DNA from: Planctomycetota bacterium
GTDB taxonomy: Bacteria; Planctomycetota; B15-G4
Direction of reading: 5' to 3'
Assembly: GCA_038212275.1 (NCBI GenBank)
Contig: JBBQUR010000010.1
Span: forward strand, 1-64,000
DNA: 64,000 bases
Shown: in pieces, positions 18,001 to 21,000 of the stretch
Layout: each line of letters starts with the position of its first letter
Numbering within the stretch: the first letter of the stretch is position 1
Made by a program: the position numbers

Positions 18001-21000
18001 CAACTCTTAGCTACGCATGTCCGCGCATGGGGATGATTCCTCAGTGCCGAGTAAGGCGAGTCCGCCGAGGCAACCAGACTGGCCGCACACGCGATAACTA
18101 CCGTATTGTGGCTGTAAACGTAGGCCATTTAACCATCACAGTCACCCACGGAGAACTCTGTGCACCCCCTCTTCAAGGTCCTGATCGTTGCTGCAGTCCT
18201 GGCAATCATCGCCGTCATCTACCAGTCCCAGCAGCAGGCAGATGATCAATCCGGCTGGTCGCAGTACGGTGTCGCAGAGGCGCAGGGCTTCACGGTGGAA
18301 GCGCTTGAGGCTGCGCAGGACCAGACGCACGGCACGTCTGCCGAGCCTTGGATCGCCTATCAGCTGGCTGTGAAGCTTTATGAGTCGGGCGGGCGCGCAA
18401 ATCTCGATCGCTCCCTGCAACTCGCGAAGGAAACGCTCAGGATGTTTCCCGACCATCCCATTGCCGAGCGCCTGCGAAACCTGATCCAGATGACCGACAG
18501 CTATGCCGGAGTCGCAGACGCTGCATGACCGGTCAGGCGATGGTGCGCGGCTGAGCAGAGCTTGAGGGCGTGCCTTCACGCAAGTGAACTGAGTGACCGG
18601 CTGTCCGCTCGGCGGGCCCAGCGGGCGTGTGGCTCTCGGTTGCTGAAGCTTCGATGGTGATCACGCCTCGGCAGCCAGAGCGCCGGCGGTCAACAAGAGG
18701 TGCAACAGACGGTCGCGATCCTTGTCCGAGTAGAACATGAATCGGACTTCGCCACGGCCACCCTTGTCGTTAATAGACACCTTAGTTCCGTATATAACGC
18801 GTAGTTGTTCTTCGTAATCTCGGATTGCGGTTCGTGATCTGGGCGAGCCGGCGACGTGCCTGCGCTGAGCCCGTTTCGAGTGTTGCTGAGCCCTTCGCTC
18901 GACTTCGCGCACGGACAGGCTGTCGCGTGACGCAGCCTCGGCCAACGCAATCATCTGCTCGCCACTGCCAGCTGCCAGCACGGCTCGAGCCTGCCCTGCG
19001 GAGAGCGCGCCGGCGTGGAGAAGTCGCTTCACGCCATCTGGCAGGTCCAGCAGGCGCAGGGCGTTTGTCACGGCGGCCCTGCTCTTGCCGACTCGCTCCG
19101 ACAGAGCCTGGTGCGTCAAGTCGGCTCGGGCGAGCAGCGCGTCATATGCTGCAGCCTCTTCCAAAGCGTTGAGGTTTTCGCGCTGGATGTTCTCGATCAA
19201 GGCCAATTCGAGTGACCGCGAACCGCTCGCCTCGATGACGAGCGCCGGAACGGTGAGCCTTCCCGCCAGCCGAGACGCCCTCAGCCGCCGCTCTCCCGCC
19301 ACGAGCTGATAAACGCCTGCAATACGCTGCACCACAATGGGTTGCAGTACTCCGTATTGTCCGATGGACTTCGCCAGACCTTCCAAAGCAGCCTCGTTGA
19401 TGATCTGTCGCGGCTGGTCCGGATTGGGATGCACATCTCCCACAGGCAACTCAAAGACTCGCTGCTGAGCCTCCAGTTCGGACGGGATCGCCGTGGTTCG
19501 GGAGATGAGGCTGTCGAGCCCCTTGCCGAGTCTGCGCTCGCTCATGCCGGTCACTCCGAGATCCAGCAGAAGCTAGTCGGCCAGACGGTGTCGATCAATC
19601 ATGTTTCACGTGAAACATCGGTCGACCCGGTCGCTCGCCGCATTCGCGCAGTCAGGTGCCGATCCGGAGATATTCCAGGCCGGGAGCCAGGGGGCGTCCG
19701 TGCTCGCCGAGGCCCGACTCGAAAAGCGCTTCCAGATCACGCAGGGCCCTCGAATCACCATGCACGCGAATCTGCTGAGGCCGAGGATGCCTTCCGCCCA
19801 GCAGAATCAGGCTCATGAGCGAGTTCGCCGAGCAACTTTCGCCGTCAAGGCTGATCTCCAGCGGCGTGCCGTAATGCCGCGCAATCTGAACGATCAGCGC
19901 CAACGGACGCGCGTGCAGCGTCACCCCCGCCGGCATGCACAGCGCAACAACCGCCCGGCTGACAAACATCTGCAGAATCTGGTGTGCAAGTGCGCTGGCC
20001 GATTCGACATAAAGATATGCATGCCTTAGACATACGTTCACAGCTATGTCCAGTATTTCCAGCTCGTTCACAACCGTCGTGATCGCCGTCCGCGCCGGGG
20101 CATGCCGGATATCACTCTCGTGCCGCTCGTAAAAATGCACGAGACCGGTCGCCATCTCGAGCAGGTGCAGCGACACGGATACGTGACCGCGCAACGAGGC
20201 GAGCCACGGGTGGTCCCGCTCGACAACAGTGTTCAACACGAAGGTGTCGTAGATGGACTGGATGCTGTGGACGGTTGACTCATACCAGCGGCACCGCTCT
20301 TCGCTCGCATATTCCGTGACGAACTCAACGAGCGACTCCTTCGGGCGCGCGAATCCGAGGTTCAGACTGCGGCTCGTCTCGAGCACCTTCAGGAAGCGCG
20401 CCCCGATCTCCGCAATGTGCTGTCGCTCGTCCACGGCTTCGGACTCGTCGAGATTCCGTGGAAGAAGGTGACGCTGCGGTAACTTCGACTTCACTTCGAC
20501 TGACGATAAAGACCATTTACAGCCGTGTTGAGAGGCCTCTAGCTCCAGGGAGCCCAACAAGCCGTGGAGGGCCTCGTTGAGCCTTCCCAACGACTCGTCA
20601 AGCTCTGTGGCGAGTGGGGCGCGATCGATCAGCACTTGGTATCGCGTGAGCCGCTGCGACAGGTGCAGGCCGATGGAGCCGACCGCTGCCAAACCGCGAG
20701 CGGATGCCACCGTCTCCCCGAAGGTCACAAAGGTTCGGTTCTGCCTCGCGCCGAAGTCATCGAGGAAGGTCTCGAAGTCGTGCGCTTCCTGGGACAGCCG
20801 AGCCATGACGGAAGGAGAGCGCAACAGCTGGGCGTCATTGCGAATGGCAACGACGCACCCTCCGAAGGCCTGCGACTCCTTGGCCAGGAGCGTCCTGAAC
20901 TCGTCCTCGCGAACGATCACGTCGCGAGAGAGCGCTGTCGAGGTATCGCGTGATTCCGTCTGCGTCATGGCTCCAGCCCGAATGGCGTCAGTCTATCACG

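Follow-up and report, generated by a model that had tools for sequence, protein, structure and literature searches.

The window analysed here, a 64,000-nt stretch of a Planctomycetota genome, contains a gene that we call X (g01858), whose product combines an HPr phosphocarrier module with a helical domain not described before. X is transcribed divergently from a sigma-70-family gene, is followed on its own strand by parB, and is separated from parB by a parS site, with dnaA about 10 kb away. A search of positions 17000-22500 against Rfam gave no matches. The features are listed with their coordinates in the window.

19652..20968, minus strand: gene X (g01858), 438 aa, with a helical N-terminal domain and a C-terminal HPr domain
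19961..20968, minus strand: N-terminal all-helical domain of X, aa 1-336, two helical bundles, matching no known family
19655..19960, minus strand: HPr domain of X, aa ~337-425, plus a short conserved C-terminal tail
19913-19915, minus strand: codon of H352 of X
19820-19822, minus strand: codon of S383 of X
19602..19617, no strand assigned: parS, perfect palindrome TGTTTCACGTGAAACA, within the intergenic gap between X and parB
18661..19554, minus strand: parB, chromosomal ParB/Spo0J type, 297 aa (ParB_N 3.7e-26, HTH_ParB 5.4e-29, TIGR00180 7.1e-49)
21110..21958, plus strand: divergent sigma-70-family gene, 282 aa, with regions 1.2, 2, 3 and 4 (Pfam, NCBIfam)
30475..30957, plus strand: dnaA (Bac_DnaA, PF00308, E 8.2e-66), ~10 kb from X, marking the block as origin-proximal

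The HPr domain and the distribution of the family

The first-pass annotation of this DNA had described X as a multidomain protein of 438 aa that ends in a true HPr domain and has PTS-HPr as its single Pfam match, and Pfam, a profile search of the PDB and the structure model all agree with that description. The same Pfam match (PF00381) was found again over aa 351-417 (E 6.8e-07; its 29.7 bits exceed the cut-off of 23), and at E<=10 it was found in all 46 members of the X family that were scanned, the best at 2.1e-09; the NCBIfam model TIGR01003 scored 32.8 on X, under its cut-off of 47.9. A profile of the 46 members matched solved HPr proteins in the PDB over their full length, with 3le5 at the top (E 2.5e-13, chain residues 2-88), and in that alignment the LHaRP of X falls on the LHARP of HPr. 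Structurally, the AlphaFold model of the full-length protein (pLDDT 92.3, pTM 0.89) gives the C-terminal domain the open-faced beta-sandwich of the HPr fold.

Of six residues listed earlier as invariant, H352, R354, P355 and S383 hold up in an alignment of 46 X sequences, whereas A353 is conserved in at least 90% of them and M385 varies. The most distant members of the family, at ~515-520 aa, carry an insert of ~90 aa within the HPr domain, and the His and Ser are retained in these ~520-aa variants at 25-30% identity. The HPr domain of X is real, with the equivalents of His15, Arg17 and Ser46 kept. Conservation of the Ser46 type is also known in the HPr of organisms without HprK, so that the conserved Ser of X need not mean regulation at that residue; a search of the genome for HprK gave zero matches. 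With the genome's own free HPr/NPr the domain shares only 31% identity over 45 aa and is therefore not a recent copy of it.

Among characterized phosphocarriers, the closest comparison is with HPr/NPr itself (PF00381; ptsH, ptsO), with which the C-terminal ~90 aa of X share the fold and the His15, Arg17 and Ser46 positions, and for which EI and EIIA-Ntr-type partners are encoded in the genome. Those are free proteins of 85-90 aa, however, whereas the HPr domain of X sits behind a helical domain of 335 aa. The multiphosphoryl transfer proteins FPr/FruB and DhaM are similar to X in being HPr domains fused to another module and presumably charged by EI, but there the partner module belongs to a known family, EIIA or EI, while that of X is an all-helical domain without a family; neither PTS transporter genes nor dha genes lie near X.

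Both parts of the protein, helical and HPr, are present in every full-length relative examined, and three short relatives that were candidates for stand-alone N-terminal domains look truncated. An exhaustive search with aa 1-340 alone retrieved 280 cluster representatives (E<=1e-3). Among the 150 best, most are 430-530 aa long, and those scanned have HPr behind the helical part. Throughout the relatives examined the helical domain is joined to HPr, and we regard the fusion as obligate.

A search of 5.8 billion proteins returned 165 relatives of X at E<=1e-3. The gene occurs in 89 of 401 sampled Planctomycetota genomes, and the earlier count within the class of this bacterium (35 of 42 genomes) was reproduced exactly. 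It was also found in 267 stretches of a one-genome-per-species collection; the 80 listed among these are nearly all labelled Planctomycetota and include the cultured Saltatorellus ferox Poly30. The ESM Atlas gave top scores of 0.81-0.83 with X, all to 'HPr domain' or unnamed clusters, which we take as leads only. X belongs to a widespread, unstudied family found mainly in Planctomycetota. Literature searches on HPr, ParB, PTS, Planctomycetes and chromosome segregation, with subscription journals outside their coverage, gave no paper describing it, in keeping with the previous statement that no description had been found. The present work adds the parS and dnaA context, a survey of synteny across the phylum, the link to a phosphoesterase, and the comparisons with the CHAD and HPt folds.

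The N-terminal helical domain

The first 336 residues of X have zero matches in Pfam, NCBIfam or the sequences of the PDB, and beyond HPr no weak Pfam match recurs across the 46 members. Folded alone from a 31-sequence alignment, the domain gave a model with a pLDDT of 94.1 and a pTM of 0.92, for which Foldseek returned nothing at E<=0.001, and its fold matches all lie inside the chance range for helical bundles. This includes the four-helix bundles of the HPt type (CheA P1/YojN): the likeness of the first bundle to an HPt or CheA-P1 domain, noted previously, is no greater than chance.

The domain is nevertheless marked by a set of strictly conserved positions. Across 31 divergent X sequences, down to 23% identity, 17 columns are invariant, comprising L169 and 16 polar residues: D70 and N77 in the N-terminal half; E223, R227, H234, Q237, S238, Y240, D241 and T242 on the first long helix; and R260, G261, H268, H278, R282 and H283 on the second. 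On these helices (223-244 and 255-284) the invariant residues are spaced i/i+3/i+4, with conserved His, Arg, Glu and Asp side chains running as a stripe along the helices, and this helical spacing suggests that the invariant residues form one buried polar site or groove. The domain may represent a fold family not seen before, one in which a polar site is conserved.

Functionally, such a site would be of use if X were an enzyme, in which a phosphate acceptor, such as a nucleotide, was bound by the helical domain and phosphorylated from the phospho-His of the attached HPr domain, much as DhaM recharges the ADP bound to DhaL, the all-helical subunit of dihydroxyacetone kinase. The spacing of the 16 invariant polar residues on helices 223-244 and 255-284 is that expected for a buried polar site, the HPr fusion is obligate, and phosphoesterases are found beside the gene (at 47 of 75 loci a metallophosphoesterase; at the distant locus L079 a CYTH gene, 9 nt downstream of X), all of which are consistent with an enzyme. 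Yet the Pfam searches gave zero matches to Dak2/DhaL or to any kinase family, DhaL is missing among the fold matches listed, and the neighbours in the window suggest no substrate, and we consider an enzymatic role unlikely.

A different identity for the domain was suggested by the Foldseek search, in which CHAD structures were the only whole-length rows with a high 'prob', 0.92 for 6qva and 0.85-0.92 for 6rn5 over 326-347 columns, as would be expected if the N-terminal domain were a divergent CHAD-type polyphosphate-binding module fused to HPr. CHAD domains (PF05235) likewise consist of two consecutive four-helix bundles with conserved histidines, and CYTH, the domain encoded after X in L079, is a common CHAD partner. 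Profile similarity is lacking, however, with an hhalign probability of 0.4% against 24 CHAD domains and no Pfam match; the superposition is weak and globally poor; and the domain of X is acidic and has no internal repeat, in contrast to the basic surface of CHAD. Membership of the CHAD family was rejected on these grounds, and even a divergent module of this type strikes us as very improbable.

The origin-proximal block around X

The translation of parB contains the GERRLRA motif, and its gap to X measures 97 nt when counted to the GTG start and 106 nt when counted to an ATG three codons further in, which explains the distance of 106 nt given earlier. The parS palindrome in this gap lies 35 nt beyond the stop codon of X; the window has no second site with <=2 mismatches (0.01 matches expected), and the 4.65-Mb, 91%-complete assembly none with <=1 mismatch. 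This single parS marks the centromere of the genome, and dnaA its origin region. Among loci of the window's own family, 9 of 10 have a parS inside the gap between X and parB, and parS-like sites occur at or near parB in 30 of the 35 loci that have a downstream parB. A promoter scan around the locus found none, and of four terminator-like sites detected none lies in the gap between X and parB. A ParA/Soj homologue with a long Ala/Pro-rich tail is encoded elsewhere, on contig C33 (25302-25844, E 1.4e-54), so that in this lineage the two partition genes, parA and parB, lie apart. X had been said to stand 'in ParA's place', which holds for its position only: neither X nor the 46 members has a Pfam match to a P-loop family, including the AAA_31/CbiA domain of the ParA/Soj type, and the ParA homologue is encoded on C33.

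We compared the neighbourhood across 40 X loci with 8-kb flanks (set 1) and 80 further X loci (set 2). In set 1, parB lies downstream of X in 35 of 40 loci, in 34 of them on the same strand, at distances of 94 to 4,557 nt; in set 2, 64 of 65 loci have it no more than 4 kb downstream (63 on the strand of X), and only 14 of the 65 have it adjacent (<=700 nt). X and parB are separated by one or two genes in most members of the family. The divergent sigma-70-type gene reported upstream in the first-pass annotation recurs in 34/40 loci of set 1 and in 78 of the 79 loci of set 2 that have enough flank, mostly 100-480 nt away, and its linkage to X is no looser than that of parB. The order sigma<>X-(phosphoesterase)-parB extends far beyond the class. 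At the five most distant X loci, sigma, parB and parS are all missing from the vicinity.

The genes concerned form part of a longer series, ordered bshC, pyrF, pabA, hemW, sigma, X, parS and parB, followed in relatives by a cyclophilin-type PPIase, at whose position the window has a 122-aa ORF without a cyclophilin domain. The rest of the block is housekeeping in nature (bacillithiol genes, pyrF, pabA, a hemW-type radical SAM gene, cyclophilin, pyrB/pyrI). Because the whole origin-proximal block is conserved, the proximity of X to parB is not a specific signal, and the position of X beside parS, parB and sigma is best explained by this deeply conserved block.

These data bear directly on the proposal that X, charged by the PTS-Ntr-type relay, informs the ParB/parS complex of the metabolic state, from a regulatory spot where ParA is usually encoded. 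In its favour, parB follows on the same strand in 34/40 and 63/65 loci, the only perfect parS of the genome lies 35 nt past the stop codon of X and is kept in the gap in 9/10 loci of the same family, no terminator-like site intervenes, and parA lies away from parB in the lineage. However, the linkage is part of a conserved housekeeping block (bshC, pyrF, hemW, sigma, PPIase, dnaA), the two genes lie within 700 nt of each other in only 14/65 loci, the five most distant loci have neither parB, parS nor sigma nearby, and X has no ParA-like P-loop family match in a genome that encodes a ParA homologue elsewhere. The earlier interpretation is thus borne out in part, for the multidomain HPr protein and the genes that could feed it; nothing beyond gene order speaks for the reporting of X to ParB, and we regard this reporting as distinctly unlikely.

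The sigma factor beside X is not the primary RpoD, which is encoded at C1:44064 and scores 365 bits against 230 bits for the neighbour. By analogy with E. coli, where dephospho-HPr binds the helical anti-sigma Rsd, X could be a built-in version of that pair that modulates the divergent sigma-70-family factor, which is its most constant neighbour (34/40 and 78/79 loci, mostly 100-480 nt away). The HPr-Rsd complex has been solved (PDB 4xwj) and papers on HPr-Rsd exist; there, too, HPr works with an all-helical, sigma-linked regulator, as X adjoins a sigma gene, but the E. coli partners are two separate proteins and the Rsd_AlgQ model of Pfam matches 0 of the 46 X members. The sigma orthologue is present in 274 of 401 genomes of the phylum, including whole families without X (20/20 in one of them, f6), so that sigma does not depend on X, and the five distant X loci lack a sigma neighbour. 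Sigma/anti-sigma pairs are, moreover, usually co-transcribed and not divergent, a further point against this arrangement, and on balance we think it rather unlikely that X acts on sigma.

A complex prediction with sigma, ParB (residues 1-270) and X as the partner scored 0.01 against a mark of 0.32; run without controls, it is evidence neither way. An action of X on ParB or sigma is possible, its basis being gene order alone.

The phosphoesterase neighbour and the regulatory PTS

A metallophosphoesterase of ~245 aa (Metallophos_2) is encoded directly downstream of X in 18/40 and 47/75 loci of the two sets, and in most of the wider family it lies between X and parB, which accounts for the absence of an adjacent parB outside the class in the first-pass annotation. 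Of the 47 phosphoesterase genes adjacent to X, 44 run convergently to it and are therefore not co-transcribed with it. At locus L058 the metallophosphoesterase gene is on the strand of X, and at L057 the two are fused in frame in one ORF of 711 aa; this is the only clean fusion, comes from one genome, and could reflect a sequencing error that removed a stop codon. A second apparent fusion, P0149, involves a different and seemingly frame-shifted phosphoesterase piece, and a candidate in genome G350 was rejected, its long frame being upstream read-through only, with X ending normally. In the window's own family the metallophosphoesterase has gone from the locus, leaving X to abut parS-parB, and two homologues are found on contigs C5 and C6. 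Among the neighbours of X, the metallophosphoesterase is the likeliest functional partner, and it could reset the phosphorylated HPr domain or act on the same ligand.

On the donor side, the genome holds an EI gene (C12), a free HPr/NPr gene (C6:66396) next to an EIIA gene (also on C6), and further EIIA genes, of the EIIA-Ntr type; the set of genes previously proposed to be able to feed X is thus present. The N-domain of EI was found in 390 of 401 genomes of the phylum, including 86 of the 89 with X, and for a gene present in almost every genome of the phylum, co-occurrence with X carries no information. Planctomycetes are described in a published analysis (PMC2405797) as carrying a regulatory EI without PTS transporters.

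Given a conserved HPr domain behind an obligate helical partner with a candidate polar site, we lean towards X receiving its phosphate from the regulatory PTS and acting either as a regulator switched by phosphorylation or as a phosphotransfer protein, with the helical domain as the putative target of the switch or as an acceptor site. Mechanistically, EI of the transporter-less PTS would phosphorylate H352 from PEP. This phosphorylation could then switch the binding or action of the helical domain, so that X would work as a built-in pair of HPr and partner, or the phosphoryl group could be handed to whatever the helical domain binds in its putative polar groove. The PTS of Planctomycetota lacks sugar transporters and its outputs are largely obscure, and X is a concrete, testable candidate for such an output.

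A more far-reaching form of the phosphorylation-switch reading would make X a PEP-fed phospho-switch at the single centromere, in which the helical domain couples carbon or energy status to ParB-parS, to the unlinked ParA or to sigma, and a dedicated metallophosphoesterase resets it. We hold this to be a long shot; if true, it would be a direct link from the PTS to chromosome segregation in a phylum with unusual cell division. With Saltatorellus ferox Poly30, the family includes a cultured carrier of X in which experiments are feasible.

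parS and the origin-proximal setting

The gap between X, the gene for the helical-domain HPr protein, and parB holds a parS site, and since no other site with at most one mismatch was found across the whole assembly, it is probably the chromosome's single centromere. The distance from X to dnaA is about 10 kb, and the window therefore spans the origin-proximal region. The genome's sole strong ParA/Soj homologue is unlinked to parB, being located on another contig (C33), and the final ~350 aa of this ORF form an Ala/Pro-rich low-complexity tail.

Window 19602-19617: parS, perfect palindrome, inside the X-parB gap
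Window 30475-30957: dnaA
G000 contig C33, 25302-27158 (locus L003, 1501-3357): ParA/Soj homologue, 618-aa ORF

Some relatives carry five to seven parS-like sites clustered around parB, and at one of these loci (L055) five perfect parS copies lie inside a 1.3-kb stretch between X and parB.

L055 11678-13657: parS-like cluster near parB
L168 6877-8401: parS-like cluster near parB
L068 9938-11395: parS-like cluster near parB

Other genes of the conserved block

Three further features of the window:

Window 15147-17468, minus strand: 773-aa protein, matched in Pfam by nothing but a T2SS protein G (pseudopilin-like) domain at its C-terminus
Window 18160-18528, plus strand: 122-aa ORF divergent from parB, clustering with cyclophilin-type PPIase genes
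Window 24458-28318, plus strand: bacillithiol-type gene set of BshC-like, PIG-L deacetylase-like and GT4 glycosyltransferase-like clusters

The 773-aa protein is kept in 27 of the 41 loci of the block. In relatives, the position of the 122-aa ORF is occupied by cyclophilin-type PPIase genes of the same cluster encoding 330-450 aa, and within the window's family the ORF is without a PPIase domain. The bacillithiol-type set, named here from the Pfam matches of cluster representatives in relatives, also belongs to the conserved origin-proximal block.

Possible fusion, possible loss and divergence in the X family

At one locus (L057), X shares one frame with the metallophosphoesterase, which in other genomes is encoded beside X by a gene of its own; this could reflect either a true fusion or a stop codon lost in the assembly.

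L057 7854-9989, plus strand: 711-aa ORF comprising helical domain, HPr and metallophosphoesterase, in frame

In the class sample searched, X was not found in four of the five genomes of family f104 (G406, G408, G409 and G410), of which three are 89-92% complete; this pattern suggests a real loss in the family.

The most distant family members (L077-L081; P0127, P0193), which come from low-GC genomes, measure ~515-525 aa and carry a ~90-aa insert within the HPr domain, past the Ser46 helix. Neighbourhoods at L077-L081 are unrelated (LeuRS, peptidases, Tex), with a CYTH gene 9 nt downstream of X at L079.
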